Shown piece by piece: positions 11,744 through 63,154 of a DNA stretch of 64,000 bases. Within the stretch, counting starts at the first letter, position 1; the number at the start of each line of letters is the position of its first letter. The stretch comes from Minisyncoccota bacterium (GTDB lineage: Bacteria > Patescibacteriota > Minisyncoccia > Phycocordibacterales > DATDWN01). The notes under the pieces are model-generated. The model made no database searches. It was not told where the DNA came from and saw only the letters and a list, made by a program, of their open reading frames with translations. Made by a program: the position numbers and the translations under genes. The stretch lies in the NCBI GenBank assembly GCA_041658985.1, contig JBAZZC010000004.1, positions 20,221 through 84,220 on the forward strand. Direction: 5' to 3'.

Positions 11744-11751
11744 TGTGGTTT

Positions 11752-11884: not shown

Positions 11885-11887
11885 GAA

Positions 11888-13639: not shown

Positions 13640-13642
13640 TAT

Positions 13643-13777: not shown

Positions 13778-13779
13778 AA

Positions 13780-19035: not shown

Positions 19036-19135
19036 GCGAAATCGGGAATTCGTTTTTACCCCCAAAATTGAATACAAATTAGTCGCCGAGCGAAGCGAGG
19101 CGAACCAAAACTCTTTGACTTTTCCTACGTGGTGC
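19035..19135. repeat. IR1-R: inverted partner of 17531-17631
   Basis: See IR1-L. Confidence 0.9.
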
Positions 19136-19227
19136 AGTATCCTTGAATTAGTCCGAACGCATTTCGCCGCCTGCGGCGGCGAGGAAGTCCCCCCGCAAAA
19201 ATTCGGAAAGGCGGCGGAGCCGCACCG
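19132..19227. repeat. IR2-L: 96-bp perfect inverted repeat (partner 20132-20227). Overlaps the end of IR1-R by 4 nt.
   Basis: 19132-19227 equals the reverse complement of 20132-20227. Confidence 0.9.
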
Positions 19228-19527
19228 ATCAAAACCGTAAAAGAACCCGGAGAAAAACATCGGCGCGAACCATATTTTAATTTTGGGGGAAGAAAATTTT
19301 TTAATCCATTCAGAACCCTCTAAAATGGCCCCAAATAAGGGCTTTTTTGATTGTTTCGATATGGCTTGACAGAAAGGTTTGGATATGCTATACTTAATGC
19401 AGTAAATTGAAGTAAGTTCTTTATCATTTTTGGTCAGCTTTCTTGCGACACAATAGCTTAGAAACCTTGTTTTTCTTAGTTGCTGTGTCGCAAGAATCCA
19501 ACAACCCACAACCCAAAGGAGACTGAC

Positions 19528-20004: not shown

Positions 20005-20131
20005 CTCCGCCCGCCGCCAACCCAAACCAAGTTCGCCACCTCTTGATAAAAGGTGGCTTTCTTTTTGTCTGATTTTTTGATAAAATAAATTCATAATTGA
20101 ATGCCGCCAAAGAAAAACTTGAAATTGTCAG

Positions 20132-20227
20132 CGGTGCGGCTCCGCCGCCTTTCCGAATTTTTGCGGGGGGACTTCCTCGCCGCCGCAGGCGGCGAAATGC
20201 GTTCGGACTAATTCAAGGATACTGCAC
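20132..20227. repeat. IR2-R: inverted partner of 19132-19227. It is immediately preceded (20101-20129) by a 29-bp inverted copy of recombinase-gene codons 31-40 (18872-18900).
   Basis: Direct comparison; see findings. Confidence 0.9.
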
Positions 20228-21626: not shown

Positions 21627-21712
21627 GGGTAGGTGCCCGAGCGGTCAAAGGGGACTGTCTGTAAAACAGTTGGCCTAGGCCTACAGAGGTTCAAATCCTC
21701 TCCTACCCACCA
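21627..21712 (+). tRNA. tRNA-Tyr(GTA), type II (copy 2), 6 nt after the tyrS stop
   Basis: Acceptor GGGTAGG/CCTACCC, anticodon stem ACTGT with loop CTGTAAA, long variable arm GGCCTAGGCC, T-loop GGTTCAAATCC, encoded CCA. Confidence 0.85.
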
Positions 21713-35515: not shown

Positions 35516-37831
35516 TTACTTATTAATTTTTCCCGCCTCATCGGCGGGTCGCCGAGGAGGCGACTTCTTAAACCCACGTTTCTTTTTTTCTTGAGCAAAA
35601 ATTTCTAATGCACGGGGGAGTTCTATCGTATAAACATCATCTTCTTTTAACGAGCGAAAATCTTTTTGGTGGACAATATATGGTCCAAACATTCCGATAT
35701 TAGCTGTTATCTTTTCTCCAGTATCTGGATGAACACCTAATACTCGGGGAAGTGTAAGATAGGTCAAAGCATCTTGGAGGGTTACGGTAGAGAGATCTTT
35801 TCCTTTTGGAATCGAAGCCATTTTAGGTTTAACGGCTTTAGTTGAACCTTTTCTCCCAGTACCAGAGCGAAGCTCGGTACGGGACTTCGCTTTAGCTCTT
35901 TCTCCCACTTGAACATATGGTCCGTATTTTCCAATCAAAATGTAAATAGGTAATCCGGTTTCTGGGTCTGTTCCGATTGGTTCTTCCTTTTTTATTTCCT
36001 GTCCATCCATAGTCAGTGCTCCCTGACATTCTGGATATTTAGCACAAGACAAGAATTTTCCTCCACGAGAAAGTTTAATTATCATAGGTCCCTGACAGAC
36101 AGGACATTTCATTTTTGCGTCTGCATCACCAAGATTATTTACTTTATCTATTTTGTCTTTGCTTTTTACATCAGCTAAGAATGGTTTATAAAAAGTCTTT
36201 AGGGTTTTTACATATTCTTCTTTTCCGTTGGCGATGAGGTCAAGCTTGTCTTCCATTTCAGCAGTGAAACTATCACTTATATAGTTAGCAAAATTGGCTT
36301 CAAGAAAACTTGAAACCACATCACCAGTATCGGTTGGTACTAGGGCTTTATTTATTTTGTCTACATAACCCCTGTCTTCCAGAGTTCCAATAATAGAAGC
36401 ATATGTACTAGGTCTTCCGATTCCTCTCTTTTCTAATTCTTTAACAAGCCCTGCCTCAGAATATCTTCCTGGAGGTTCGGTTTGTTTTTCTTCGGTTGAA
36501 ACTTTCTTGAGCCCCAATTTCTCACCGACAGAGACTTTTGGTAATTCAACATCATCTCCTCGAGAGGCGGGGTCACCCAAAAGCCACCCAGGAAATTTTA
36601 TTTGTGAACCAGTTATAGAAAAATCTGGCATATCACTACCTTTAACGTTTGTGGTGATTTTTGTGCGTAATGTCATCGCATCCTTCATTTGTGATGATAC
36701 TGTTCGTCTCCAAATTAATTCATAAAGTTTTTTTTGTTCGTCATTTATTCCAGCATGCTCAACATTAAAATGGGTAGGGCGAATAGCTTCGTGGGCTTCC
36801 TGGGCATTTTTGCTTTTTGTCGCAAATTTTCTAATTTGTAAAAATTCTTTTCCGTATTTACTTTCAACAACTTGTGCTATTTGAGCTATAGCCACAGCGC
36901 TTAAATTTGTTGAATCTGTACGCATGTACGTAATATATCCTGCTTCATATAGTTTTTGGGCAATACCCATAGTTCTTGAAGGTGAAAATCCAAGGCGAGA
37001 ACTAGCGGTTTGTTGAAGTGTTGAGGTAATAAAGGGTGCTCTGGGAGATTTCTTTACGTCCATTTCTTTAACATCTTTTACGAACCATTTATTTTCTTTT
37101 CCACCTTTTTCGGCAGTTTCAACAATCTGCTCAACCTCTTTTTTGTCTGTAGGTTCAACCTCGCAGACCACCGTAAATTGACCAGACCCGCCTCCTTGGC
37201 GGGTCGCCGAAGAGGCGACATCTGCCGAGATAACCCAAAAAGCATGAGATTTAAAAGCACGAATTTCCCTTTCTCTCTCCATTATGATTCGGAGAGCGGG
37301 GGACTGAACTCTGCCTGCAGAAAGTCCATATCGAATTTTTTTCCAGATAAGTCCGGATAAATCATATCCAACAAGTCGGTCCAATACACGTCGCGCTTCC
37401 TGTGCTTGTCTCAAATTCTGATCTATGTCTCTGGGATGTTCTAATGCTTCCCGTATTGCTTCTTCTGTAATTTCAACATATGAAACCCTCTTCACTTTCG
37501 ACTTTCGACTTTCGACTTTCGACTTGCCGAAATCATTACCTATGATTTCGGCAATGTGCCAAGCGATAGCTTCACCCTCACGGTCGGGGTCGGTAGCAAG
37601 TAGTATTTCATCTGCCTTTTTTGAAAGAGATTTAATTTCATTAACCACCTTTTCTTTTCCTTTTGATATTTCGTAATGGGGAATAAAACCACCATCTATA
37701 TCAATGGCTTTTTTGTTCGATTTTGGTAAATCACGAATATGACCAACAGAAGCAACAACGGTGTACTCACCATCAAGATATTTTGAAATTGTCTTTGCTT
37801 TTGCTGGAGACTCTACAATAAGTAACTTCAT
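35516..37831 (-). CDS. topA: DNA topoisomerase I
   Basis: Toprim MKLLIVESPAKAKTI, catalytic-Tyr region, C-terminal zinc ribbons (CPVCQGPM...). Contains two in-frame GC-rich palindromic insertions and a 7-bp x4 tandem repeat. Confidence 0.95.
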   Translation of the reverse strand: MKLLIVESPAKAKTISKYLDGEYTVVASVGHIRDLPKSNKKAIDIDGGFIPHYEISKGKEKVVNEIKSLSKKADEILLATDPDREGEAIAWHIAEIIGNDFGKSKVESRKSKVKRVSYVEITEEAIREALEHPRDIDQNLRQAQEARRVLDRLVGYDLSGLIWKKIRYGLSAGRVQSPALRIIMEREREIRAFKSHAFWVISADVASSATRQGGGSGQFTVVCEVEPTDKKEVEQIVETAEKGGKENKWFVKDVKEMDVKKSPRAPFITSTLQQTASSRLGFSPSRTMGIAQKLYEAGYITYMRTDSTNLSAVAIAQIAQVVESKYGKEFLQIRKFATKSKNAQEAHEAIRPTHFNVEHAGINDEQKKLYELIWRRTVSSQMKDAMTLRTKITTNVKGSDMPDFSITGSQIKFPGWLLGDPASRGDDVELPKVSVGEKLGLKKVSTEEKQTEPPGRYSEAGLVKELEKRGIGRPSTYASIIGTLEDRGYVDKINKALVPTDTGDVVSSFLEANFANYISDSFTAEMEDKLDLIANGKEEYVKTLKTFYKPFLADVKSKDKIDKVNNLGDADAKMKCPVCQGPMIIKLSRGGKFLSCAKYPECQGALTMDGQEIKKEEPIGTDPETGLPIYILIGKYGPYVQVGERAKAKSRTELRSGTGRKGSTKAVKPKMASIPKGKDLSTVTLQDALTYLTLPRVLGVHPDTGEKITANIGMFGPYIVHQKDFRSLKEDDVYTIELPRALEIFAQEKKKRGFKKSPPRRPADEAGKINK

Positions 37832-39789: not shown

Positions 39790-41061
39790 ATGTTAGACAT
39801 AAAATTTATTCGAGAGAATAAGGATCTCATATCTGCTGGAGCAGAGAAAAAACATATTAAATTTGATGTTAATGCTTTACTTACTGCTGACGATAAACGC
39901 AAGGAACTTTTAGTGACTATTGAGAACAAAAGAGCAGAACAGAATGTGGTTAGTGAGAAAATGGTCAGAACAAATAACCAATCAGAAAAAGACCAAATGA
40001 TTTTGGAGATGAAAGGACTTAAAGAAGAACTACAGAAGGAAGAAGAAGAATTAAAAAAGGTGATGCACGAATGGCAAACCCTAATGATTTCAGTGCCAAA
40101 CATTCCAGATATGTCTGTGCCAGATGGAAACAGTGATAAAGATAATAAGGAAGTAAAAGTTTGGGGAGAAATTCCAAAATTTGATTTTAATCCCAAGGAC
40201 CACATTGAACTTATGCAAGACTTAGGAATGCGTGATATTGAGCGTGGAGTCAAAGTTGCTGGGTTTAGAGGGTATATTCTGAAAGGAGATGGGGCGAGGT
40301 TACAATTTGCTCTCTGGCGATTTGTTCAAGATTTTTTTATGAAAAAAGGAGGATTTACTCCAATGATTGTACCTTCACTTATAAAACGAGAGGCGTTTTT
40401 AGGAACAGGATATATTCCACAGGGAGAGGAGGACTTGTATAAAACACAAGATGGGGAGTATCTTTCTGGTACTGCAGAGGTTGCAATGATGTCGTATTAC
40501 ATGGGAGAGGTTTTAGAAAAAAAAGATTTACCAATAAAAATGTTAGGGTTTTCTTCCGCCTTTCGTCGTGAGGCAGGAGCACACGGAAAAGATACGCGGG
40601 GTATTTTGAGAGTTCATGAGTTTTATAAATTTGAGCAGGTAGTATTATGTGAAGCCTCTCATACTGAATCAGTAAAATATCATGAAGAAATAGAGAGGAA
40701 CACAGAGGAGATTATGGAAACACTAGGTTTGCCTTACCACGTTGTTATTAATTGTGCTGGAGATTTGGGCCTTGGGCAGGTTAAAAAATATGATATTGAG
40801 GCGTGGCTTCCATCAGAAAATACATATCGTGAGACTGGTTCGGCTTCTTATTTTCATGATTTTCAAACACGCAGACTTAATATTCGTTATAGGGACAACG
40901 ATGGTAAAATGAAATTTGTTCACTCGCTTAATAACACCGCTCTCTCTGGTCGTCCTCTTATTATGATAGTAGAAAACTATCAAAATGAAGATGGAAGTAT
41001 ACGAATTCCGGACGTACTTCAGCCCTACATGGGAGGACAGCAAATTATTTCGAAGAAATAA
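39790..41061 (+). CDS. serS: serine--tRNA ligase
   Basis: N-terminal coiled-coil arm (MLDIKFIRENKDLI...) and class II motifs (FRREAGAHGKDTRGILRVHEF, GSASYFHDFQ). Confidence 0.95.
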   Translation: MLDIKFIRENKDLISAGAEKKHIKFDVNALLTADDKRKELLVTIENKRAEQNVVSEKMVRTNNQSEKDQMILEMKGLKEELQKEEEELKKVMHEWQTLMISVPNIPDMSVPDGNSDKDNKEVKVWGEIPKFDFNPKDHIELMQDLGMRDIERGVKVAGFRGYILKGDGARLQFALWRFVQDFFMKKGGFTPMIVPSLIKREAFLGTGYIPQGEEDLYKTQDGEYLSGTAEVAMMSYYMGEVLEKKDLPIKMLGFSSAFRREAGAHGKDTRGILRVHEFYKFEQVVLCEASHTESVKYHEEIERNTEEIMETLGLPYHVVINCAGDLGLGQVKKYDIEAWLPSENTYRETGSASYFHDFQTRRLNIRYRDNDGKMKFVHSLNNTALSGRPLIMIVENYQNEDGSIRIPDVLQPYMGGQQIISKK

Positions 41062-41183
41062 TTTGAATTTCTAATTTTTAATTCCTAATTTCTAAATAAG
41101 CACCAATAAACAATGAATGAGTTGGGGATTGGGTTTTGGAATTTAATTAGTAATTAGAAATTAGGTCAATTAGAAATTTTTAT
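41062..41183. mobile_element. miniature inverted-repeat element, family B (AATTTCTAATT-type TIRs), no ORF
   Basis: Left arm GAATTTCTAATTTTTAATTCCTAATTTCTAAATAAG. Right arm AATTAGTAATTAGAAATTAGGTCAATTAGAAATTTTT (approximate reverse complement). Related copy at 42043-42495. Confidence 0.5.
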
Positions 41184-41184
41184 T

Positions 41185-42042
41185 ATGATTGTCACCAAGT
41201 CTCTTTCACACGGAGAGTATTTAAGAAAAAGGAGAAATAAAAAACTCTGGAAGTTTAGTATTGCTCTTTTTTTAGTCATTTTAATTATCGGGCTTACTTC
41301 ATATCTTTCACACAGGTCAGAGGTTCGTATCTCAAAAGTTGAATTAAACGGTGGAATTTTGGTAACACAAGCCGATTTAGAATCTAAAACCCTTGAATAC
41401 ATGTACGGTTCACATTTTTGGTTATTTCCAAGAAACAATGCTTTTTGGTATCCACATGGTGGTCTAGAGAAATATTTAAAGGAGACCTTTAAAAGAATTG
41501 ATGCTATAGATATCAGTCGGAAAGGTTTGCAGACTTTGGTGATAGACATCAAGGAACGAAAGCCGTTTGCTCTTTGGTGTAATAGTCCTTCAGTCTCTAC
41601 AACTACTCCAATCACGGAGAATGGTGCGGAGGATTGTTATTTCCTAGACCAAAATAGTACTATTTTTGCCAAAGCCCCGACCTTTTCAGGTGACGCATAT
41701 TTTAAATATTATGGAATCTTATCAGAATCGGAGTTGTCACCTATAGGCAAGGAATATATGGCAAGCACTACCGAATTTACTGCAATTTCAAATTTTGTTT
41801 CAAGTGTAAAAGAGCTCTCAATAAGGCCGTTATATTTGATAGCAAAAAGTGATGATGAATTTTCTCTTGTTGTCTCTGGTAAGGGTGAGATTTATTTTAA
41901 TTTAAAGGAGCCTTTATCTATTACCAGCCAGAATCTTAAAGCACTTTTACGTACCCCAACTTTTGCCAGTACGACGGGTGATTTGCCGGTGGAGTATATA
42001 GACCTTCGCTATGGCAATAAGTTGTTTTATAAACTCAAATAG
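41185..42042 (+). CDS. FtsQ/DivIB-like cell-division protein (TM + POTRA-like domain)
   Basis: Single N-terminal TM, then ISKVELNGGILVTQADLES (POTRA-like). Family assignment tentative. Confidence 0.5.
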   Translation: MIVTKSLSHGEYLRKRRNKKLWKFSIALFLVILIIGLTSYLSHRSEVRISKVELNGGILVTQADLESKTLEYMYGSHFWLFPRNNAFWYPHGGLEKYLKETFKRIDAIDISRKGLQTLVIDIKERKPFALWCNSPSVSTTTPITENGAEDCYFLDQNSTIFAKAPTFSGDAYFKYYGILSESELSPIGKEYMASTTEFTAISNFVSSVKELSIRPLYLIAKSDDEFSLVVSGKGEIYFNLKEPLSITSQNLKALLRTPTFASTTGDLPVEYIDLRYGNKLFYKLK

Positions 42043-42495
42043 AATTTCTAATTACTAATTTCTAATTACTAAATAAATCCCAATGATCAAAAACCAAAAG
42101 TTTGATTTGGAAGAACGAAGTGCAAAATTTGGGGAGGATGTAATTAAATTTTGTAGAGACTTGCCGAAAGATGAAATAACAAGACCAATAATTAATCAAC
42201 TGGTAAAATGTAGTACGAGTGTTGGGGCTAATTATTGTGAAGCAGATGATGCTGAATCTAAGAAGGATTTTAAACACAAGATTGGTATTTGTAAGAAAGA
42301 AGCAAGAGAATCAAAACATTTTTTGAGAATGTCTGTAATTGCAGTACCCGAAGTTAAGGAAAGAGCAAAAATTTTGTGGGTTGAGGCAAAAGAGCTAAAT
42401 TTGATATTTAATGCTATATATAATAAGTGTTGACTTGGTAATTGGTGCTTGGTTATTGTTTAGAAATTAGGTCAATTAGTAATTAGAAATTTTTA
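42043..42495. mobile_element. family B TIR element carrying a four-helix-bundle (23S rRNA IVS protein family) gene
   Basis: Left arm GAATTTCTAATTACTAATTTCTAATTACTAAATAA. Right arm TAGAAATTAGGTCAATTAGTAATTAGAAATTTTTA (approximate reverse complement). Encloses ORF 42083..42433. Confidence 0.5.
42083..42433 (+). CDS. four-helix-bundle protein (TIGR02436 / 23S rRNA intervening-sequence protein family)
   Basis: KCSTSVGANYCEADDAESKKDFKHKIGICKKEARESKHFLRM matches the rSatSIpANIAEG...kdf...l.iA.GS..E family pattern. Confidence 0.7.
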   Translation: MIKNQKFDLEERSAKFGEDVIKFCRDLPKDEITRPIINQLVKCSTSVGANYCEADDAESKKDFKHKIGICKKEARESKHFLRMSVIAVPEVKERAKILWVEAKELNLIFNAIYNKC

Positions 42496-42515
42496 CGTAT
42501 TCGTATATTAACTTT

Positions 42516-51033: not shown

Positions 51034-51164
51034 ATGAATCCCGTTAGAAATCACCAGGTTTGTTTATGAGAATAATGAATTATCATGAAATACTTAATTA
51101 TTAACAAATATTATTAAATAACTACGGAAAGGCTTTAGCAAAAAGCTTTCCTATTTCTAACGGG
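51034..51164 (+). promoter_or_regulatory. conserved stem-forming 5' leader, copy 1 (arms ATGAATCCCGTTAGAAAT / ATTTCTAACGGG abutting the start codon)
   Basis: The 12-nt arms are perfectly complementary. The same arms occur at 55408-55514. A third copy at 58048-58153 carries a compensatory change. Confidence 0.55.
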
Positions 51165-51635
51165 ATGAATATAAAAAATTTTATACAATCGAGAGTCTTT
51201 CGGGGTATCCTAATCGGTCTTGTAATAGCAATTGTTGCTCTTGTTATCTTCCAAGCAGGTATTGCTGTGGGATATAGAAAAGCGACGTTTGGTCATCGTT
51301 TGGGTGATAATTTTGAGCGAAATTTTAAAGACCCAAGAGGGGGAAATTTTGGCTTTAGGGGTGTTCCAGGAGGAATGGATATGCCGAGCGGTTATGGGGC
51401 TACCGGAAAAATAGTAAGTATTGCATTGCCACTTATTGTTGTCGCTGGACCAGATAATCTTGAAAAGACGTTGGTAATAAATGAAGATACTGAAATTCGT
51501 GAATTTCGCAATAGTATAACAAAGGATAAACTCCAGGTCGGGAATTTTATTGTTGTTTTGGGTACTCCGAATGATAAAGGACAAATAGAGGCTAAGCTTA
51601 TTCGTTTGGCTCCGATGCCAAAAAATGATTTATAG
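51165..51635 (+). CDS. small membrane-anchored Gly-rich protein with C-terminal beta domain (paralog A)
   Basis: N-terminal TM, GGNFGFRGVPGG, C-terminal beta-rich domain. Paralogous architecture to 55515..55952. Confidence 0.45.
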   Translation: MNIKNFIQSRVFRGILIGLVIAIVALVIFQAGIAVGYRKATFGHRLGDNFERNFKDPRGGNFGFRGVPGGMDMPSGYGATGKIVSIALPLIVVAGPDNLEKTLVINEDTEIREFRNSITKDKLQVGNFIVVLGTPNDKGQIEAKLIRLAPMPKNDL

Positions 51636-51652: not shown

Positions 51653-53419
51653 ATGAAAAATTTTATTTCACACATAAGTTTCAAAAAAGTTTCTGCTTAT
51701 GCAAAATTACACAAAATTATAAGTATTATCATTATCCTCGTAATCGTTGGGGGTGGTTACTTAATTTACAAAACATTTACATCTTCTAGTGCTAGTGTGA
51801 GTTATGTTCTAGGCACAGTAGAGAAAACAACCATTGTTTCTTCTGTGTCTGCAAGCGGTCAAGTTTCGACCGTAAATCAGATTGATATTAAACCAAAAGC
51901 CTCGGGGGATGTTACTTGGGTTGGTGTAAAAGCCGGAGACGCGGTTCGTGCTGGTCAAGCACTGGCATATATTGATGCCACGAATGCCAAACAAACTATT
52001 GCTGATGCGGAAAGCTCGCTTGCAGAAGCAAAATTACAATATCAAAAAGATTCTGCCCAAGCACCGATTGATTATGAAAAATCGCTTGAAGCACTTGATG
52101 ATGCAAAAAAAAGTCTAGACACTACTTACAACGATACATACAATACTGTTTCTAATGCCTATCTTGATTTGCCGGGGGTGGTTACTGGTATGCAAAATAT
52201 TTTATATGGGTATACTCTAAGTGGTCAGGGTCAATGGAATATTGATGTACTTAAGAATACTGGTTCAAACAACTTAAATTCAGGGATACAAACATTTGCA
52301 GATATTGCCGAAAGAGATTATAAAATAGCTCGCACAAAATACGACCAAGCGGTATTGGATTTTAAAGTATTAACTCGCTATTCACCCACTTCCGGCCTCG
52401 AAAAGTTATTGAATTCATCTGTTGATACCACCACAGCTATAGCACAAGCATTGCAGAGTGAATTAAATGTTTTAGACGCAGTAGTTGATGATGCAACAAT
52501 ACGTAACATAATGGTGAACTCATTGATCACGACTATGCGCACAAATGCTCGCAGTTACCTTTCAACAGTTAACAGTAATTTAAGTGCATTACTTAATCAA
52601 CAAAAGTCACTTGATACTACAAAAAAGACTATTCGTGACAGTGAACGTAATATAGAGATATATAAAATTGGTAATGAAAGTGGAAGTAATCCTATAAGTC
52701 TTCAATCAAGTGCGGGGTCAATAGCAAATCAAGAACGTAATTTGCAAGAGCTCAAAAATAATCTTTCATATTACACAGTCACTGCGCCTTTCGCTGGTAC
52801 AATTGCATCCGTGAATCTTAAAAAGTTTGATACCGTTTCAACTGGAAGTAACGTAGTAACACTTATTACTACTCAAAAGATTGCTCAACTCTCTCTTAAT
52901 GAAGTAGATGCAACAAAAATTAGCCTAGGAGACAAGGCTACACTTACATTTGATGCTATAGAAAATTTTACTCTGACTGGTGAGGTTATTGAAATTGATG
53001 CGGTAGGAACAGTCAGTCAGGGGGTTGTGTCATACAAAGTGAAAATTGGATTTGATAGTCAGGATGAACGTATTAAATCTGGTATGACCGTAAACAGTTC
53101 TATTCAAACTGATGTTAAACAGGATGTCTTAGCGGTTTCATCAAGTAGTATAAAAACACAAAACGGCGTAACTTATGTTCAGGTATTCAATCCAGCATTA
53201 GCAGAGACCGGAGGGACAACGGGGGTGGTTTCTACTATTTCACCAACACAGATTGAGGTAAAAACTGGTATATCTGATGACACAAAAGTGGAAATTTTGG
53301 AAGGATTGAAAGAGGGAGAACAAATTGTGACACGTACTATTTCAGGGACAGCAACAGCAAACACAACGACTTCTGGTAACGCAAGAACCGGACTTGGTGG
53401 AACAGGAATTCGTTTCTAA
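51653..53419 (+). CDS. HlyD/MacA-family periplasmic adaptor (membrane fusion protein)
   Basis: N-terminal TM, biotinyl-lipoyl-like hairpin (VSASGQV...IDIKPKASGDV), long coiled coil, beta-barrel C-terminus. Confidence 0.65.
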   Translation: MKNFISHISFKKVSAYAKLHKIISIIIILVIVGGGYLIYKTFTSSSASVSYVLGTVEKTTIVSSVSASGQVSTVNQIDIKPKASGDVTWVGVKAGDAVRAGQALAYIDATNAKQTIADAESSLAEAKLQYQKDSAQAPIDYEKSLEALDDAKKSLDTTYNDTYNTVSNAYLDLPGVVTGMQNILYGYTLSGQGQWNIDVLKNTGSNNLNSGIQTFADIAERDYKIARTKYDQAVLDFKVLTRYSPTSGLEKLLNSSVDTTTAIAQALQSELNVLDAVVDDATIRNIMVNSLITTMRTNARSYLSTVNSNLSALLNQQKSLDTTKKTIRDSERNIEIYKIGNESGSNPISLQSSAGSIANQERNLQELKNNLSYYTVTAPFAGTIASVNLKKFDTVSTGSNVVTLITTQKIAQLSLNEVDATKISLGDKATLTFDAIENFTLTGEVIEIDAVGTVSQGVVSYKVKIGFDSQDERIKSGMTVNSSIQTDVKQDVLAVSSSSIKTQNGVTYVQVFNPALAETGGTTGVVSTISPTQIEVKTGISDDTKVEILEGLKEGEQIVTRTISGTATANTTTSGNARTGLGGTGIRF

Positions 53420-53431
53420 ATTTTCTATAGC

Positions 53432-54145
53432 ATGATTGAAATTAAAGATATAACAAAAACATATGGTTCTGGTGATGCAAAGCTTCAGGCTCTAAAAGGA
53501 GTTACTTTTACTATTGAGGATGGTGAATTTGTGGCAATTATGGGACCATCGGGTTCTGGTAAATCAACTCTCATGCATATTCTCGGTTGTCTTGATACAC
53601 CAACCTTGGGAACATATTTTCTTGATAGTAAAGATGTGTCTGTTCAAACGGACGAAGAGTTGGCTGAAATTCATCGACTTCATATTGGTTTTGTTTTTCA
53701 ATCTTTTAATTTGTTACCACGTACGACTGTTATGCGTAATGTGATGTTACCTCTTGTCTATGCAGGTGTAGACGAAGAAGAAAGAGAAAATAGGTCAATA
53801 AAAGCACTATTGGCATCTGGAATGACAGAATCACATTTTGCCCATATGAGTAATGAGTTATCTGGTGGACAGATTCAGCGTGTTGCTATTGCGAGAGCAC
53901 TTGTGAACGACCCCTCACTTATTCTTGCTGATGAGCCTACGGGAAATCTGGATACGAAGACTGGAGAAATTGTTCTCGGCACTTTTCAAAAACTAAACAA
54001 AGAACATGGTCGTACTGTTATTTTAATTACACATGAGCATGAAGTGGCCGAGTATGCTGAACGCATTATTACGATACGGGATGGTGTCATAGTCTCCGAC
54101 TCTAAATCACATTCACGTAAACATTATAAACACGATGAAATTTAA
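53432..54145 (+). CDS. ABC transporter ATP-binding protein (MacB/LolD/FtsE-like)
   Basis: Walker A GPSGSGKST, signature LSGGQIQR, Walker B ILADEPTGNLD. Confidence 0.9.
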   Translation: MIEIKDITKTYGSGDAKLQALKGVTFTIEDGEFVAIMGPSGSGKSTLMHILGCLDTPTLGTYFLDSKDVSVQTDEELAEIHRLHIGFVFQSFNLLPRTTVMRNVMLPLVYAGVDEEERENRSIKALLASGMTESHFAHMSNELSGGQIQRVAIARALVNDPSLILADEPTGNLDTKTGEIVLGTFQKLNKEHGRTVILITHEHEVAEYAERIITIRDGVIVSDSKSHSRKHYKHDEI

Positions 54146-55358
54146 AGATATCATTCAGGAAACATATTCAGCATTATCTGCCAACAAAGTTCGGTCTGGG
54201 TTAACCATGCTCGGTATTATAATAGGTATTTCATCAGTAATTGCCATGGTTAGTATTGGTACTGGTGCATCTAAAACAATATCATCTTCAATTGAGTCAC
54301 TTGGCTCAAATTTAATTCAAGTGACACCTGGAGCACAGCGTCAACAGGGTTTTGGTGCAAGTGGTGGCCGTGGGAATGCTAAAACTTTGACCAATGAAGA
54401 TGCCGATGCTATTGCAACACAAATTACAGATGTAGAGGCCGTTGCTTCTCAAGTTTCTGGTCGGTATCAGATTACGGCAAAGGGTACAAATACCAATACA
54501 ACGGTAAACGGTGTCACATCAAATTATCCTCAAATTCGTAATATAGAAATAGCCGACGGGTCGTTCATTTCTGATACCCAAAATAATTCAGCGTCAAAAG
54601 TGGCAGTACTTGGGCCTACGACACTTATTGATTTATTTGGAGAGGGGACAAGTGCTGTAGGACAGTCAATTCGCATTAACGGAATGGAATTCAAAGTTAT
54701 TGGCGTTACAGTTTCAAAGGGCGGGTCGGGTTTTCAAAACCAAGATGATGTGGTTTTTATTCCAACAAAAAGTGCACAAAGATATCTCTCAGGTGACCAA
54801 TATCTCTCAACTATTGCTGTACAAGCTACAGCACCTGAGGTAATGTCACAAGTACAAGCAGATATTACTGCATTGCTTTTAAGTCGGCACAAAATCTCAG
54901 ATTCTACTTTAGCTGATTTCAGCGTGCAAAATCAAAACGATATTTTAGGAGCAGCATCTAGCATCACATCTACACTTACCTATCTTCTGGCCGCAATTGG
55001 AGGTATTTCTCTTTTGGTCGGGGGTATCGGTATTATGAATATGATGCTCACGACCGTGACAGAACGCACAAGAGAAATTGGACTACGCAAAGCGATTGGT
55101 GCGCGCAAAAAAGATATCTCAATTCAGTTTTTGGCAGAAGCGATTACCTTGACAGTTATTGGTGGAATTATAGGTATTGCATTAGGTTGGTTGATTTCAT
55201 TTGTCGTGAATTGGACGGGTCTTGTGACAACAAGTGTTTCACTTTCGTCAGTTGTTCTTGCTTTTGGGGTGTCAGCCGTTGTTGGTATCGTGTTTGGGTA
55301 TTACCCCGCACGTCGTGCATCAATGCTTAACCCTATTGAGGCATTAAGGTACGAATAG
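54135..55358 (+). CDS. ABC transporter permease, FtsX/MacB-type (TM1 - periplasmic domain - 3 TM)
   Basis: MacB_PCD-like periplasmic domain and C-terminal FtsX domain (ERTREIGLRKAIGARK motif). Confidence 0.85.
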   Translation: MKFKDIIQETYSALSANKVRSGLTMLGIIIGISSVIAMVSIGTGASKTISSSIESLGSNLIQVTPGAQRQQGFGASGGRGNAKTLTNEDADAIATQITDVEAVASQVSGRYQITAKGTNTNTTVNGVTSNYPQIRNIEIADGSFISDTQNNSASKVAVLGPTTLIDLFGEGTSAVGQSIRINGMEFKVIGVTVSKGGSGFQNQDDVVFIPTKSAQRYLSGDQYLSTIAVQATAPEVMSQVQADITALLLSRHKISDSTLADFSVQNQNDILGAASSITSTLTYLLAAIGGISLLVGGIGIMNMMLTTVTERTREIGLRKAIGARKKDISIQFLAEAITLTVIGGIIGIALGWLISFVVNWTGLVTTSVSLSSVVLAFGVSAVVGIVFGYYPARRASMLNPIEALRYE

Positions 55359-55407: not shown

Positions 55408-55514
55408 ATGAATCCCGTTAGAAATAACGGAGATCAAAAGTGCCATTATCAGATACATTAAATAATTAAATGTAGGAATCAAAACAAAATAATGATCTCC
55501 TATTTCTAAACGGG
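55408..55514 (+). promoter_or_regulatory. conserved stem-forming 5' leader, copy 2
   Basis: Arms ATGAATCCCGTTAGAAAT ... ATTTCTAAACGGG, then ATG of 55515. The internal hairpin GGAGATCA...TGATCTCC differs from copy 1's GGAAAGGCTTT...AAGCTTTCC. Confidence 0.55.
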
Positions 55515-55952
55515 ATGAAGAATAAAACAACAATAGTTGTCGTAGTATTAATTTTAATTGGGGCATCATTTTATGGTGGAGTGGTGTATGGCAAAAGGAC
55601 TCTTCCTACTCGAGGACAATTTACTAACAGTCAATTTACGGGAAATGTAAGTGGTGCAAGAGGTACTGGTATGAGAGGAAATATAAATGGTGGATTTACG
55701 GCAGGTGAAATTATTTCTAAAGACGCCACAAGTATAACTATAAAAATGCAAGACGGTAGTACTAAAATTGTTTTAGTTGCTACTAGTACACAAGTAATGA
55801 AATCATCAGCCGGTTCTTTGGGGGACCTAACGACCGGTACAAATGTAACTATTACCGGTACTGCAAACAGTGACGGAAGTCTTACTGCTCAAAATGTGCA
55901 AATTCGTCCTGCAGGGCTTGCACCAATTGGCGGTATGAGAGCAACTCGATAA
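55515..55952 (+). CDS. small membrane-anchored Gly-rich protein with C-terminal beta domain (paralog B)
   Basis: N-terminal TM, Gly-rich linker, beta-rich C-terminus. Confidence 0.45.
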   Translation: MKNKTTIVVVVLILIGASFYGGVVYGKRTLPTRGQFTNSQFTGNVSGARGTGMRGNINGGFTAGEIISKDATSITIKMQDGSTKIVLVATSTQVMKSSAGSLGDLTTGTNVTITGTANSDGSLTAQNVQIRPAGLAPIGGMRATR

Positions 55953-57880: not shown

Positions 57881-58047
57881 AAAACATGCTATCAAAAGTC
57901 TCTAATCTGACACCTATAGAATCGGAGTTTATAAGAATTACCCAAACTCATTTGATAAAGAGATAAAATTGATAGAACTAAATAAATAAAAAATAGTATG
58001 ACAGCTTTCCGTTTTAGTGGTATTAGTATATACTTTTACATACCTGT

Positions 58048-58153
58048 CCCGTTAGAAGTTGTAGAGAGTTAATAGGGATAGGTATTCATTATAAAAATAA
58101 TTTAAGTAATTTATCACAAGGTATATTATTTTGTGAATTTTACTTCTAATGGG
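58048..58153 (+). promoter_or_regulatory. conserved stem-forming 5' leader, copy 3 (arms CCCGTTAGAAGT / ACTTCTAATGGG)
   Basis: Relative to copies 1 and 2, A>G in the 5' arm is matched by T>C in the 3' arm, which preserves pairing. One G.U wobble. Confidence 0.5.
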
Positions 58154-58264
58154 ATGGCAAAAAGAGCAGCAACAAACACAAAAAACAAAACATCTCGTTC
58201 GCACAAGACAAAAAAGCGACTTGAAATAAAACGACTTAGACTTCTTGCAAAACGTAAGAAGTAG
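58154..58264 (+). CDS. tiny highly basic peptide (36 aa, MAKRAATNTKNKTSRSHKTKKRLEIKRLRLLAKRKK), ribosomal-protein-like composition. Not in the ORF track.
   Basis: ATG directly after the leader's 3' arm. 37 codons. Composition resembles small r-proteins, but no family assigned. Confidence 0.3.
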   Translation: MAKRAATNTKNKTSRSHKTKKRLEIKRLRLLAKRKK

Positions 58265-59499: not shown

Positions 59500-59502
59500 T
59501 TT

Positions 59503-59734
59503 ATCCGCACACTAACTCTCATTTTGGGTTAGTGTATTTTTTATTATTAATTTTAATCTACTTCTAACTCGACTCATATATTCTAACACTTTTTTCTTTC
59601 CTTATATATCTAACCCTTTTGTTATGTTTTATAACTTTCTAATCTTGGGGGATTGAACTTATGTCGCTTATTTTAACTTTAATTTTCTATTATGTGGGTA
59701 TAAAACATAACGAAATGAGAGTTAGTGTGCGGAT
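59503..59734. mobile_element. family A miniature TIR element (non-autonomous, ~230 bp)
   Basis: ATCCGCACACTAACTCTCATTT at 59503-59524. Reverse complement AAATGAGAGTTAGTGTGCGGAT at 59713-59734. No ORF inside. Confidence 0.6.
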
Positions 59735-59794
59735 GAATTTTAACACAAAATTTTCAAGCAAGTTGACAAGATAAAAAAATGTTAAAATAGAGGA

Positions 59795-60964
59795 ATGACT
59801 CCTTTAGCTGTAAAAATTAGACCTACAAATCTCGATGATTTTGTTGGCCAGAAACATCTAGTGGGCGAAGGAAAGCCCCTACGTGTTGCCATAGAAAAGA
59901 AACATCTCTTTTCCTTTATCTTATGGGGTCCTCCTGGAGTGGGTAAAACCACTTTGGCTAGAATTTATGCCAAAGCTATTAATGCCGATTTTTACGAACT
60001 TTCGGCTGTTTCTGCCGGGAAAGATGATATAAGAAAGATATTGGTTTCAGAGAAAGAAAAAACAAAAGTTTTGTTTCTTGATGAGATTCATCGTTTTAAT
60101 AAATCACAACAGGATTTTCTTTTACCCTTTGTTGAGTCCGGTGAGATGCTTCTTGTCGGTGCTACAACAGAAAATCCGAGTTTTGAGGTTATTTCGCCTC
60201 TCCTTTCACGTTGTAGGATTTTTGTTTTAAATGATTTTTCTCCCGAAGAAATGGGGGAGATTCTTGATCGAGTACAAACCGCCTCTTCGGCGGTCCGCCG
60301 AGGAGGCGGAAAAGAAGCCAAAATAAAAATAGATAAAGAGTCAAAAGGGTGGCTTATTAGAATGGCCAACGGTGATGCTAGGCAAGCCATATCGCTTTTG
60401 GAAGCCACCATTGGTTTGTATGGAAAAATTAGTGTTGAAAATTTGAAACAAGCCCTACAATCAAAATTTTTAAGGTACGATAAGGTTGGTGATGAGCATT
60501 ACAATACTATAAGCGCCTTTATTAAAAGTATGCGTGCTAGTCAGCCTGATGCTGCGCTCTATTATATGTGCAGAATGATTGATGCTGGTGAGGACCCAAA
60601 ATTTATTGCTCGTCGTATGGTGGTTTTTGCCAGTGAGGATATTGGCCTTGCTCAGCCAACGGCTCTTGTTGTAGCTAATGCTGTTTTTCGGGCCGTGGAA
60701 ACTATAGGATTGCCTGAATGTGCCGAGAATTTGGCACACGGGGTTGTCTATTTAGCGCAGGCCAAAAAAGACCGTTCAGCTTACAATGCTTACTTGGAGG
60801 CCATGGAAGATGTAAAAAAATATGGTAACCTCCTTATACCTTTAAAAATAAGAAACGCCCCAACTAAGCTCATGAAGGATTTGGATTACGGAAAAGGCTA
60901 TGAGCAATATACCAAAGAGGATTTATTACCAGAAAAGTTAAAGAACAAAAAATACTTAAAATAA
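59795..60964 (+). CDS. rarA: replication-associated recombination protein A (MgsA/RarA AAA+ ATPase)
   Basis: LWGPPGVGKTTLARIYA, sensor motifs, C-terminal MgsA-specific helical domain. Contains the in-frame GC-rich palindrome at 60279-60309. Confidence 0.9.
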   Translation: MTPLAVKIRPTNLDDFVGQKHLVGEGKPLRVAIEKKHLFSFILWGPPGVGKTTLARIYAKAINADFYELSAVSAGKDDIRKILVSEKEKTKVLFLDEIHRFNKSQQDFLLPFVESGEMLLVGATTENPSFEVISPLLSRCRIFVLNDFSPEEMGEILDRVQTASSAVRRGGGKEAKIKIDKESKGWLIRMANGDARQAISLLEATIGLYGKISVENLKQALQSKFLRYDKVGDEHYNTISAFIKSMRASQPDAALYYMCRMIDAGEDPKFIARRMVVFASEDIGLAQPTALVVANAVFRAVETIGLPECAENLAHGVVYLAQAKKDRSAYNAYLEAMEDVKKYGNLLIPLKIRNAPTKLMKDLDYGKGYEQYTKEDLLPEKLKNKKYLK

Positions 60965-61275: not shown

Positions 61276-61351
61276 AGGCCTGTGGGAAAGCCCGCGATAT
61301 CATCGCGCTCCCACGGGCTTTTTCACACTCAAAAACTTTATGTTATAATTC

Positions 61352-61653
61352 ATCCGCACACTAACTCTCATTTCGTTATGTTTTATGTATATGTGATCAA
61401 AAGTAAAAAGTTTGATAATCTATACATTGGTTCTACTAATAGTCTTAGAGAAAGACTCATAAAACATAACAAAGGACTAGTTAAATCAACAAAAAAGAAT
61501 AAACCATATGTGCTAATATATTATGAAGCGTATAAGATAGAATCAGATGCGCGAAGGAGGGAAAAAATGTTAAAATATAGAGGTCAAGCAAGAAATCAAT
61601 TAAAATTAAGAATAAAAGACACACTAGCGCAAAATGAGAGTTAGTGTGCGGAT
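61352..61653. mobile_element. family A TIR element (22-bp TIR ATCCGCACACTAACTCTCATTT) carrying a GIY-YIG nuclease gene
   Basis: Left TIR 61352-61373. Right TIR 61632-61653 is an exact reverse complement. The GIY-YIG stop codon lies inside the right TIR. Confidence 0.65.
61378..61644 (+). CDS. GIY-YIG nuclease family protein (URI domain, ~88 aa)
   Basis: MFYVYVIKSKKFDNLYIGSTNSLRERLIKHN gives the GIY...YIG motifs, plus a conserved Arg and Glu downstream. Confidence 0.8.
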   Translation: MFYVYVIKSKKFDNLYIGSTNSLRERLIKHNKGLVKSTKKNKPYVLIYYEAYKIESDARRREKMLKYRGQARNQLKLRIKDTLAQNES

Positions 61654-61655
61654 AA

Positions 61656-62689
61656 ATGTGGATAAAGATATATTACAAAAATATTTTTTTATTGGATTGT
61701 TGTTTTTAGTATCTGTTCTCATATTTTTTATTTTTCTACCTTTTATAGAAGTAATAATTTTGTCAGCTATTTTTGCTGTTATTTTAAGTCCATTACATAA
61801 AAGGCTCACAAGGTTACTTGCTGGTAGAAGCGGAATCTCGGCCTTTGTTGTAATTTTACTCTTTGCCGTTATTATAATTGTTCCAGTATTTTTATTAACC
61901 GTTCAAATACTTGATGAATCAAAAAATTTGTATATACAACTAACCAGCCAAACAGAATTAAATTATGCGCATCAGATAACCTACGTAATAGAAAAACCGA
62001 TTCAAAGATTTTATCCAGGATTTTCGTTTGATATTGGAGCGGTTATTGGGGTTGGTACGGATTTAATTATAAGTCACTTAAGTTCTATTGTTTCCAGTGT
62101 GTTTAATATAGTTACAGGTATTATCCTTATGTTCATTTCGCTTTATTTCTTTTTACGAGACGGCTCAAAGTTCAAGAAAGTTCTTGTTGTTCTAAGTCCG
62201 ATGAATAATGAATATGATGAACGTATATTTAGTAAAATCAAACAAACTGTCCTCTCAACCGTAAAGGGTGTCTTATTTATTGCTATTATTCAAGGTCTTC
62301 TTGCTGGTATTGGTATGAAAATTTTTGGTGTTCCAAATGCCACTTTGTGGGGAAGTGTTTCAGCCGTTGCTTCTCTTGTGCCAGGTCTTGGGACGGCTAT
62401 CATTTTTATTCCAGCCGTATCATATATGTTTATCATCGGTAACGTTCCCTTTGCAATCGGACTATTGCTTTGGGGTATCTTGATTGTCGGTCTGGTAGAT
62501 AATTTTCTTGGGCCATATTTATATTCTCGCGGAAGTGAAATTCATCAATTAATTATGCTTTTTGCCGTACTTGGTGGCATTGGTCTTTTTGGTCCGGTAG
62601 GATTTATTTTTGGTCCGATTATTATTGCTCTGTTTTTTACTCTAATTGAAATATATCAAACTCTTATTTTGAAGAAGAATTTAGAATAA
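61656..62689 (+). CDS. AI-2E family transporter (PerM/UPF0118-like)
   Basis: 8-TM profile with GLVDNFLGPYLYSRGSEIHQLIMLFAVLGGIGLFGPVGFIFGPII, typical of the family. Start chosen at the ATG at 61656 just after the TIR. Confidence 0.7.
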
Positions 62690-62839: not shown

Positions 62840-63154
62840 GGCTTCTCCTCTCTCTGGTCAACCCGCACGGCTGACACAGTCTATTGTTAGTAAAACACAC
62901 ACAAGATAAATCTGTCAAAAAAAATGGGGATTAATCCGAACACCAAATTTGGCATCGTTGCATCGTGTTTTAATATGTGTAAGTTGTGTTGCTATGTGAT
63001 AGGACATGAGGTTATATAAAAATGTTTAACAAGCAACAAAAACACAATGCCAAAATTGGTGTGCGGATAAACGACGAACCGGCGGACTTGCGTCTGCCGG
63101 TGTGAAGGGGATTAACTCCCTTCATGTTTCTAGCTCGACATGTGCCGAGCCGTA

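Follow-up and report, generated by a model that had tools for sequence, protein, structure and literature searches.

The window, as we call the whole 64-kb stretch of DNA that was analysed, contains three hairpin-ended elements on the forward strand, each of which ends at an ATG (Table 1). The gene that begins at the end of copy 1 is the first of an HlyD/MacB-type ABC efflux cluster (51653-55358), and its product has a distant paralogue in the protein encoded directly after copy 2. The initial annotation had placed a small-protein gene after each copy; the first two stand, and the third is an unannotated 36-codon ORF, which has no Pfam match, was not among the called genes in the independent read-run assembly L241, and for which the consecutive NCBI accessions leave no slot.

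Table 1. Features of the three window copies and of the genes that follow them (positions in the window)
Feature	Position	Strand	Remarks
Copy 1	51039..51165	+	127 nt, hairpin-ended, no ORF
Copy 1, 5' arm	51039-51051	+	T-CCCGTTAGAAAT (CCCGTTAGAAAT itself 51040-51051)
Copy 1, 3' arm	51153-51165	+	ATTTCTAACGGG-A (ATTTCTAACGGG itself 51153-51164); ATG at 51165
Copy 1, sub-terminal hairpin	51126-51151	+	In the predicted fold
Copy 1, left target-site duplication TGAA	51035..51038	+	With A51034, upstream host start (ATGAA); from direct-repeat statistics
Copy 1, right TGAA	51166..51169	+	With terminal A51165, rebuilds the host ATG
Copy 1, upstream mini-ORF	51034..51069	+	MNPVRNHQVCL, then stop; made by the insertion
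Host gene after copy 1	51165..51635	+	156 aa, N-terminal TM, weak DUF5666 match
Copy 2	55413..55515	+	103 nt, no ORF
Copy 2, 5' arm	55413-55425	+	T-CCCGTTAGAAAT (CCCGTTAGAAAT itself 55414-55425)
Copy 2, 3' arm	55502-55515	+	ATTTCTAA(A)CGGG-A; ATTTCTAAACGGG = 55502-55514, extra A is a 1-nt bulge; ATG at 55515
Copy 2, stem extension	55429-55436 with 55493-55500	+	GGAGATCA with TGATCTCC; in the predicted fold
Copy 2, left TGAA	55409..55412	+	A55408 + TG, upstream start-codon copy
Copy 2, right TGAA	55516..55519	+	
Copy 2, upstream mini-ORF	55408..55461	+	MNPVRNNGDQKCHYQIH, then stop
Host gene after copy 2	55515..55952	+	145-aa DUF5666-like TM protein
Copy 3	58047..58154	+	108 nt, no ORF; 'YYTGT / TGGG' sub-class
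Copy 3, 5' arm	58047-58059	+	T-CCCGTTAGAAGT (CCCGTTAGAAGT itself 58048-58059)
Copy 3, 3' arm	58142-58154	+	ACTTCTAATGGG-A (ACTTCTAATGGG itself 58142-58153); ATG at 58154
ORF after copy 3	58154..58264	+	36 codons, lysine/arginine-rich, status uncertain; ATG is the element's terminal A + flank TG

A paired-arm pattern matched the window four times, against 0.00 matches expected from 100 dinucleotide shuffles. The arms were found as initially described in all three copies, including the compensated A>G / T>C change and the one G.T wobble in copy 3, although each true end is one base beyond the arm as first described (T...A). The hexamer ATGAAT, which had been taken as part of copies 1 and 2, is instead a direct repeat of the sequence that follows the element and lies outside the inverted repeat. 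RNA folds predicted for copies 1, 2 and 3 had energies of -33.2, -30.8 and -32.6 kcal/mol and z-scores of -4.8, -6.3 and -4.6, respectively, and the central hairpins reported for copies 1 and 2 were both present in them. The closing stem comprises 13-14 bp, with the bases just outside the arms pairing as well, including the A (and the U) of the start codon. No Shine-Dalgarno (SD)-like purine run was found before any of the three ATGs, in agreement with the earlier proposal of start-codon occlusion without an SD. A promoter/terminator consensus scan around the copies gave counts at chance level. Rfam returned nothing but tRNAs, either at the gathering score over the whole window or at E <= 1 between positions 50900 and 58400.

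The only ORFs of the window copies are upstream ORFs (uORFs) of 11 and 17 codons, which start outside the element; that of copy 1 runs from the original start codon through the 5' arm to a stop inside the element and is not stop-free. Both reach a stop early, after 27 and 45 nt of element sequence, so that the geometry for translational coupling is absent. Two independent read-run assemblies (L241 and L242) contain copy 2 unchanged and with the same orientation, which makes three assemblies in all. An exact-match protein search for an empty allele of the window loci gave no record of the first host protein and, for the second, only records with the element. No recognisable target-site duplication was found at copy 3, where the TGT of the 5' flank and the downstream ATG pair through G.T wobbles only. 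About a dozen relatives of copy 3 likewise have no target-site duplication, and they share with it a conserved left flank YYTGT, which is left unexplained by the model proposed below.

The family and its nuclease-encoding form

Arms of the form Y-CCCGTTAGAnnT ... AnnTCTAACGGG-R were present in at least 240 loci in collection scans with two patterns: a genome scan for paired arms, which returned at least 120 loci from many phyla, and a scan for versions of 264-294 nt, which returned at least 120 metagenome loci. These patterns fixed most arm positions, and the proportions given here for the family describe a convenience sample among the matches listed. The 120 loci from named organisms belong mostly to Patescibacteria, and also to Omnitrophota, Deltaproteobacteria and Planctomycetia. 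A literature search by arm sequence gave unrelated primer matches only. The TIRs are the 13-bp termini (Y-CCCGTTAGAAnT / AnTTCTAACGGG-R), which are able to form a hairpin in single-stranded nucleic acid; the family hairpin is written as CCCGTTAGA...TCTAACGGG, and the minimal hairpin is CCCGTTAGAAGTTACTTTTCTAACGGG with TGAA flanks. Copies range in length from 27 to ~330 nt, and tandem and nested copies occur among the matches listed. Loci with one copy have ~32 extra copies per Mb, and the window has three in 64 kb. Two identical copies at one locus (L147) lie inside a partial segmental duplication and are thus not independent insertions. The interiors of the short copies are unrelated and occur in both orientations, and in four of these copies (L031, L051, L089 and L095) the oriented 3'-end motif TCCTAY lies beside the 5' arm rather than at the 3' end.

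The outermost flank pair was Watson-Crick in 166 of 168 elements, and the second flank pair was more often G.T (34) than A.C (5) on the sense strand. Mismatches within the arms (G.T 8 vs. A.C 8) had no strand bias and were uninformative. At the arm positions left free in the search patterns (positions 10 and 11), ~97% of the pairs were complementary, with three to four pair types, and the stem covariation anticipated for a larger set is real. As covariation is expected equally from a mobile element that depends on its hairpin, it does not discriminate between an RNA switch and a mobile element.

The full-length form is ~275 nt long and has one gene, which encodes a single-domain GIY-YIG nuclease of 85-95 aa; a GIY-YIG-type ORF was present in 93 of 122 long copies among the matches listed. 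The nuclease matched Pfam PF01541 (E = 1e-17) as its sole domain and gave only a sub-threshold match in NCBIfam, and its closest solved structures are the UPF0213 proteins 1ZG2 (E = 7e-7) and 1YWL (E = 1e-4). It was matched by 3619 protein clusters, and the best 120 of these 3619 were mostly 95 aa long with full query coverage, so that the arm-encoded MNPVRD is spanned. A tblastn search of plasmids with the nuclease gave one weak match only. A coding partner with the same termini as the short copies exists in this form, and none lies in the window: the only GIY-YIG gene in the 64 kb (61378-61644) bears different arms, and no nuclease gene with CCCG-type arms was found there. At its 3' end, TTTCCTATTTCTAACGGG, copy 1 matches the nuclease-bearing elements at theirs, with no change of orientation (profile positions 261-283 vs. 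103-125, + strand). When the full-length DNA profile was run against the short copies with nhmmer, the termini alone aligned, and an hmmsearch of their six-frame translations with the nuclease profile gave a best E of 1.8. Deletion was not supported as the origin of the short copies, as no similarity between their interiors and the nuclease ORF was detected in DNA or protein comparisons.

Probable insertion at start codons

Hexamers flanking the elements were identical at 3.6-3.9 of 6 positions, compared with 2.6-2.7 (sd 0.09) in permuted pairs. This identity was concentrated at flank positions 2-5, indicating a 4-bp target-site duplication, which is usually TGAA. One clean orthologous empty site was identified: locus L208 reads CAGTAAAC-element-GTAAATGC, and locus L152, which is 85.5% identical over 477 nt of flank, reads CAGTGAATGC. 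The window copies share with MITEs that they are short and non-coding, have TIRs and occur as multiple dispersed copies; the further MITE trait of a target duplication or empty site was found for the family and for copies 1 and 2, and not for copy 3. We consider it very probable that the family consists of very small hairpin-ended mobile DNA elements and that the three window structures are non-autonomous (MITE-like) members of it. The initial annotation had named a MITE whose TIR supplies the ATG as its alternative, and this is essentially right, with the last base of the element and the duplicated TG rebuilding the start. Several points speak against a mobile element. GIY-YIG enzymes are hydrolytic nucleases for which, to our knowledge, no strand-transfer activity is known. 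The window has no CCCG-arm nuclease gene, the short and nuclease-bearing forms share only their termini and insertion behaviour, the class of copy 3 has no duplication, and the evidence includes a single clean empty site and a convenience sample.

Among the short copies, 77 of 126 (about 60%) adjoin an ORF of 30 or more codons that begins with ATG or GTG, compared with 1.7% per strand at random positions, and ~52% of the full-length copies adjoin a real host ORF. At these sites the terminal A or G of the element and the duplicated TG form the rebuilt host start codon. The host genes are of the housekeeping type, unrelated to one another and with Pfam domains of full length, such as ATP synthase alpha, EF-P, pyrophosphatase and a Mur ligase, and a functional relation between the preceded genes, as raised in the initial annotation, was not borne out. 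Copies that lack a downstream gene, which the same annotation had set against its regulatory reading, do occur: ~39% of the short copies among the matches listed have no gene start at their edge. A position of such copies on host stop codons was considered and rejected (1 of 39). No published description of the start-codon arrangement was found.

In the full-length copies, the nuclease ORF and the host gene were co-directional in 43 cases and reverse in two, and the nuclease stop overlapped the host start (ATGA) in 38 of the 43 co-directional copies. The stop codon lay at +2..+4 past the element in 58 of 88 copies and in the TAA of the arm in 16 of 88, and 20 of 88 nuclease ORFs shared the reading frame of the upstream ATG. 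Boxes resembling TATAAT at five or more of the six positions were most frequent 6 nt before this ATG, with 16 of 87 at that spacing, and SD-like motifs were present 5' of the left duplication in twelve further copies. The frame of the upstream ATG was stop-free in 18 of 59 short copies, compared with 6.0 +/- 2.3 in shuffles, and the other two sense frames were stop-free in 4 and 3. It was never stop-free where the uORF would fuse to the host ORF. The excess is indirect evidence that expression is coupled through translation.

Proposed mechanism and alternative readings

We propose that the family prefers host start codons, inserting between the A and the TGAA of ATGAA. The left TGAA copy would then retain the promoter or SD signal of the host together with its ATG, and the right TGAA copy would, with the last base of the element (A or G), give an ATG or GTG to the host gene. 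In the full-length copies, the co-directional nuclease ORF would often continue from the host's own ATG (M-N-P-V-R-D...) and end in ...LTG and a TGA sharing bases with the rebuilt start (ATGA), an overlap through which host translation could resume by coupling. The window copies may have lost, or may never have had, the nuclease gene, leaving a stable hairpin that would bury the rebuilt start; in copies 1 and 2 a short uORF from the original ATG lies ahead of it. Ribosomes on the uORF may unzip the 5' arm and expose the host AUG, and an added effect of the hairpin on host translation is plausible. If Ssn/NTS and IS200/IS605 are a guide, the hairpin in single-stranded DNA is presumably recognised by the nuclease, which would mobilise both full-length and short copies.

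To the complete picture we give an even chance: a type of transposable element not described before, widespread among CPR bacteria and present in some neighbouring phyla, with a single gene, that for a bare ~90-aa GIY-YIG nuclease. It would colonise start codons specifically, express its nuclease from the promoter, leaderless 5' end or SD, and ATG of the host, and return translation via ATGA, and its gene-less derivatives would be uORF-plus-hairpin leaders tying host translation to ribosome traffic. If true, these would rank with the smallest known autonomous mobile elements (~275 bp and one ~90-aa protein), and transposon-like elements driven by a nuclease fold without known strand transfer. 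The start codon would be both landed on and duplicated, the first copy serving the element and the second being given back to the host, which would be one route for a parasite to inhabit extremely compact genomes without killing genes.

The reading favoured in the initial annotation was a dedicated cis-regulatory leader RNA that occludes start codons, such as a thermosensor or a switch responding to a protein or ligand. We judge this to be very improbable as the origin of the structures, even though the stable folds (z-scores from -4.6 to -6.3) with a sequestered start-codon A or AU, the lack of an SD before the ATG, the covarying arms, the exact ending of 61% of the short copies at a gene start and the sense-strand excess of G.T at the second flank pair (34 vs. 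5) all agree with it. The within-arm mismatches, at eight of each type, do not extend this strand bias. Sequence-identical arms precede unrelated genes in many phyla, 39% of the copies lie away from gene starts, and the arms enclose interiors that are unrelated, range from 27 to 330 nt in copy size and occur in both orientations in short copies, with no Rfam family even at E <= 1. A regulatory origin is also opposed by the target-site duplications, the empty site and the nuclease gene enclosed by the same arms. RNA thermometers and other start-occluding leaders lack a mobile-element signature and are tied to functionally related genes; the family resembles them in its stable stem that includes the initiation codon and in the absence of an SD, but both of these distinguishing traits fail here.

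A mobile origin could also be combined with a host function, the elements having been kept as a uORF-plus-hairpin device for translational coupling or attenuation. The excess of stop-free uORFs that end at the arm TAA or at a TGA overlapping the host ATG (18 of 59 vs. 6.0 +/- 2.3) is consistent with such exaptation, as are the presence of copy 2 in identical form in three assemblies and the tolerance of an element at the start of essential genes (ATP synthase alpha, EF-P, pyrophosphatase and a Mur ligase). The same excess could equally result from selection to minimise harm, that is, tolerance and not function, and the uORFs of the window copies stop too early for coupling; we regard exaptation as unlikely. 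It is scarcely credible that the inverted repeats are recombinase sites between which a segment flips to switch the downstream gene. They do lie directly upstream of genes, and TCCTAY is found beside the 5' arm in the four short copies mentioned above, but the elements have no associated recombinase, promoter signals are located beyond the repeats and not between them, the full-length copies are co-directional with the host by 43 to 2, and copy 2 is oriented alike in all three independent assemblies. Insertion accounts for the direct-repeat flanks and the empty site; inversion does not. Two further candidates were rejected. Integron attC sites have the core order 5'-RYYYAAC ... GTTRRRY-3', which is reversed here (5'-GTTAGAA ... 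TTCTAAC-3'), and there is no cassette logic. A programmed bypass by ribosomes from one ATGAAT to the other, suggested by the matched codons and the hairpin, was set aside when the repeat was recognised as the target duplication.

Comparison with known systems

IS200/IS605 and REP/RAYT elements rely on HUH Y1 transposases that act on hairpins in single-stranded DNA, and IS200/IS605 has sub-terminal hairpins, no TIRs and no target duplication. Likenesses to the present family are the tiny hairpin-defined elements, the dispersed hairpin-only derivatives and the conservation of pairing over sequence at some stem positions; GIY-YIG in place of HUH/Y1, the 13-bp TIRs and the 4-bp duplication set it apart from IS200/IS605. 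The Correia elements of Neisseria are bacterial MITEs of ~100-150 bp, non-coding, with TIRs and a short target duplication, and many copies are co-transcribed with their neighbours and fold into long mRNA hairpins. Size, non-coding nature, TIRs, short duplication, many copies, co-transcription with neighbours and long mRNA hairpins are common to Correia-type MITEs and the family here, whereas their partner is a DDE transposase and ours a GIY-YIG nuclease, and an extreme start-codon preference, a rebuilt start and arms conserved across phyla are features of the present family only. GIY-YIG homing endonucleases, whether free-standing or intron-borne (I-TevI, the Seg proteins), have a separate DNA-binding domain, spread by double-strand-break repair into one cognate allele, and are without TIRs and target-site duplications. 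They, too, are encoded by selfish GIY-YIG genes that move from genome to genome and depend on the host for expression signals; in contrast to them, the domain is bare here (~90 aa) and copies occupy many unrelated sites.

The closest published system is Ssn/NTS, and membership of our nuclease in the Ssn family (CDD cd10448) is putative. Ssn proteins are single-domain GIY-YIG ssDNA nucleases that cut single-stranded DNA only, at specific sites beside the hairpin, and whose genes are flanked by many-copy hairpin repeats (NTS-SRM), an architecture that was called 'identical to insertion sequences' by the authors (Chenal et al. 2025, Nat Commun, PMC11893778). As in the full-length relatives described here (not the window copies), Ssn is a single-domain protein of ~90-100 aa, and in both systems inverted hairpin-forming repeats flank the gene on either side and also occur without it, dispersed near other genes. 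Each Ssn flank is its own ~28-nt hairpin, whereas here the arms pair together across the whole element. The SRM motif HGTCWYN(0-2)YYVSBRHN(0-5)WNVSBRGN(0-2)RNCYNB was found 0 times at the window copies, 0 times in the window and in 0 of 91 full-length elements, while the NTS control matched. Start codons, target sites and Patescibacteria are not mentioned in PMC11893778, and the 4-bp duplication, start-codon residence, host co-orientation and stop/start overlap seen here are absent from that report. If the proposed model is true, the nuclease/hairpin pairs enlarge the candidate set of site-specific ssDNA nucleases known from Ssn.

For annotation, the model would imply that the hairpins resemble conserved 'leader RNAs' in motif screens of CPR genomes and that the start sites of adjoining host genes need care. 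The arm-encoded N-terminus of the nuclease (MNPVRD) is already present in gene-caller annotations.

Hairpin-ended elements on host start codons

The three hairpin copies of the window, which derives from a 'Candidatus Paceibacterota' (Patescibacteria/CPR) MAG, were confirmed at the positions proposed in the initial annotation, and so was the compensatory A>G / T>C change with one G.T pair in copy 3. The arm pair CCCGTTAGAAnT ... AnTTCTAA had four matches in the window against 0.00 expected from shuffles; the 3' arm of copy 2 carries a one-base bulge. Predicted RNA folds of the three copy regions reached -33.2, -30.8 and -32.6 kcal/mol (z = -4.8, -6.3 and -4.6), and the closing stem of 13-14 bp reached one or two bases into the ATG, in agreement with the claimed occlusion of the start codon. 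Folding as DNA gave an identical hairpin on either strand. Copies 1 and 2 are followed by ORFs for membrane proteins of 156 and 145 aa with weak DUF5666 matches, which flank an HlyD/MacB ABC efflux cluster, one per side, while the ORF after copy 3 is a basic, unannotated one of 36 codons.

Scans with patterns fixing most arm bases, as the initial annotation had proposed for genomes, returned at least 120 loci in species-representative genomes and at least 120 in metagenomes. Among the genome matches listed, Patescibacteria predominated (Saccharibacteria, Paceibacterota, Kaiser-, Nomura- and Moranbacteria, Kazan and others), and copies with both arms intact also occurred in Omnitrophota, Deltaproteobacteria, Planctomycetia and Stahlbacteria. 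Relaxed matching in the fetched loci revealed sizes of 27 nt (bare hairpin), 46-70 nt, 90-140 nt and up to about 330 nt, with some copies of this CCCG family (ends Y-CCCG...CGGG-R) in tandem or nested arrangement; loci already holding one copy contained ~32 further copies per Mb. Dense bare-hairpin arrays were seen in metagenome contigs L128, L144, L167/L235, L169, L206/L210 and L237, the six-frame translations of which contain repeated 'NPVR', 'PLEI' and 'ISNG' peptide motifs.

An ATG or GTG opening an ORF of 30 or more codons directly adjoined 77 of 126 short copies on one strand, with zero spacer, against a background of 1.7% per strand. Sampled hosts included inorganic pyrophosphatase, Mur ligase, type II secretion F protein, EF-P, NAD-dependent epimerase, ATP synthase alpha, a glycosyltransferase and a solute-binding protein. 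Because the Pfam domains in these proteins start close to residue 1, the adjoining codons are the true starts of unrelated, often essential genes; on the question raised earlier, the preceded genes in this sample are not functionally related.

Target-site duplication and the nature of the hairpins

The hexamers on either side of the elements were direct repeats, with 3.6-3.9 of 6 bases identical, compared with 2.6-2.7 +/- 0.09 when pairs were permuted and 1.8 one hexamer further out. Identity peaked over positions 2-5 and fell off at 1 and 6, and the base immediately outside CCCG/CGGG was complementary to its partner (T-A or C-G) in 166/168 elements. The most parsimonious interpretation is that the elements, Y-CCCG...CGGG-R, are bordered by a duplicated 4-bp target site, in most cases TGAA. 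This accounts for the many cases of 5' ATGAAC ... 3' GTGAAG, in which the host ATG was kept on the upstream side and GTG serves as the rebuilt start, G being the terminal base of that sub-family. One clean orthologous empty site was present among the fetched loci: the filled locus L208 reads CAGTAAAC[126-nt element]GTAAATGC, and its empty counterpart L152 reads CAGTGAATGC, inside 477 nt of flank at 85.5% identity. The YYTGT sub-class, including copy 3, lacks the duplication and is not accounted for by this interpretation. Its left flank [CT][CT]TGT is conserved, and its 3' arm often ends in ...TAATGGG. On the sense strand, TGT pairs with the downstream ATG solely through G.T wobbles; in many cases there is also a TATAAT box 9-11 nt upstream.

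The initial annotation had preferred a cis-regulatory RNA, such as a thermosensor or switch. Stem covariation did hold in the larger set of copies, where pattern-free arm positions were ~97% complementary with three or four pair types, but covariation alone does not discriminate between an RNA switch and a hairpin-dependent DNA element. Within the arms, sense-strand mismatches were balanced (G.T 8 vs A.C 8). The second flank pair had 34 G.T vs 5 A.C, an excess that could come from single-strand pairing, in the coding strand or transcript, or from codon usage after the ATG. No Rfam family matched the elements. The choice was decided against the switch by the duplications, the empty site, the nuclease described below and the diversity of hosts. 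The three window structures are most readily interpreted as resident parasitic DNA, tolerated by host genes.

The nuclease-bearing long form

The first long copy (L095) measured ~280 nt and contained an 84-aa GIY-YIG ORF with its stop codon inside the 3' arm. The metagenome scan, run for arms spaced 240-270 nt, gave the lower bound of 120 loci stated above; among the matches listed, lengths clustered at 274-279 nt and 93/122 long elements carried a GIY-YIG-type ORF (M[FY]Y[TV]Y[VI]L.S...G..YTG.T.DLRKRF..HN...REKYLKSGMGKRYLKNRLKRFLSLTG). The protein matched PF01541 (E = 1e-17), its closest relatives of solved structure were UPF0213 proteins, and 3619 protein clusters matched it. Most of the best 120 of these were 95 aa long with full query coverage, and thus spanned the arm-encoded MNPVRD. 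No CCCG-type nuclease gene lies within the window.

Among 88 unique long elements with sufficient flanking sequence, 58 had an ORF ending in 3'-arm-encoded ...LTG with a stop at +2..+4 (xTGA/xTAA), and in 16 the TAA of the arm itself was the stop. An ATG six bases 5' of the element shared the reading frame of the ORF in 20. A co-directional host ORF followed the nuclease in 43/82 long elements with enough flank, and only 2/82 had a host start on the opposite side. Nuclease stop and host start overlapped (ATGA or GTGA) in 38 of the 43 co-directional cases.

Short and long copies have in common their 13-nt termini, target site and host-start position and often share, in the same orientation, ~10 more 3'-end bases (TCCTAY), as does window copy 1. 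The short-copy interiors had no detectable similarity to the nuclease ORF in DNA or protein. We therefore call the short copies non-autonomous partners of the long form, not proven deletion derivatives.

The closest published system is Ssn/NTS. Ssn nucleases are single-domain GIY-YIG proteins of ~94 aa that cut only ssDNA beside a hairpin repeat, which flanks their genes and is dispersed in hundreds of copies; their authors remark on the resemblance of this architecture to an IS and treat the role outside Neisseria as an open question (PMC11893778). Target duplications, start codons and Patescibacteria are not mentioned there, and 0/91 full-length CCCG-family elements matched the Ssn SRM search motif, whereas the positive control did. 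Our literature search found no description of a start-codon GIY-YIG hairpin arrangement; one paper lists GIY-YIG genes among those horizontally donated by Patescibacteria.

Start-codon residence downstream of host signals, and other repeats

For the 87 elements preceded, six bases upstream, by an ATG, the distance from TATAAT-like hexamers (5 or more of 6 matching) down to that ATG had a sharp peak at 6 nt (16/87; 7 nt, 5/87), which is the geometry of leaderless mRNAs; SD-like motifs marked twelve more. These signals stay with the upstream ATG, so the element is located between host initiation signals and host ORF. Read in frame from this ATG, the 5' arm of short copies encodes an upstream mini-ORF (uORF), M-N-P-V-R-N/S..., which was open across the element in 18/59 copies (interior shuffles, 6.0 +/- 2.3; other sense frames, 4 and 3). 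All 18 terminated at the arm TAA (length = 1 mod 3) or at a TGA overlapping the host ATG (2 mod 3); of the copies of length 0 mod 3, whose uORF would fuse to the host protein, 0/12 were open. This excess and these end positions point to selection, as read from sequence, for termination-reinitiation at the host start. Copies 1 and 2 measure 125 and 101 nt from CCCG to CGGG, which places them in the appropriate length class; their uORFs stop early, at 11 and 17 codons. Upstream of copy 3 there is no such ATG.

The elements may owe their residence at start codons to a TGAA target preference, to survival of harmless insertions only and to a gain from borrowed host expression. We hypothesize that recognition of the hairpin in ssDNA allows the nuclease to mobilise long and short copies alike, and that ribosomes on the uORF or nuclease ORF would open the 5' arm, making the host AUG accessible.

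Coordinates of repeat features in the window, with fetched loci of the YYTGT sub-class
Feature	Window position	Details
Copy 1	51039-51165	
Copy 2	55413-55515	
Copy 3, YYTGT sub-class	58047-58154	other members: L025, L035, L054:4812, L075, L118, L004, L014, L102, L119, L150, L207
Second hairpin-ended family	11749-11887, 13640-13780, 59500-59737, 62934-63071	
Second family, with ORF	61348-61657	intact 88-aa GIY-YIG ORF (61378-61644, MFA5889051.1), TAG stop in 3' arm
Inverted repeat, 101 nt	17531-17631 / 19035-19135	100% complementary
Inverted repeat, 103 nt	19132-19234 / 20125-20227	97% complementary
GC-rich double-hairpin repeat	35532-35568, 37187-37223, 60278-60314	73-89% identity to reference copy
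Four spaced units	5923-7102	318-425 nt apart
AT-rich repeats	41060-42514	direct and inverted

A second, similar family of hairpin-ended elements has other arms, (A)TCCGCACAC[T/C]AA ... TT[A/G]GTGTGCGGAT, and several of its copies have a TATAAT box on one side and a host start on the other (ATG 13781; ATG 59499, minus strand; GTG 61658). The 101- and 103-nt inverted repeats adjoin two tRNA-Tyr genes (17451-17536, 21627-21712) in a GC-richer stretch and could represent a segment that was duplicated or rearranged, or a further mobile element. The three GC-rich copies (CCCGCCTC.T.GGCGGG TCGCCGA.GAGGCGAC) form another short palindromic repeat family. The four spaced units, with a conserved block of 45-50 nt in common, look like tandem paralogous small membrane-protein genes, and the AT-rich repeats are built on AATTAGAAATT / TTTCTAATT motifs.
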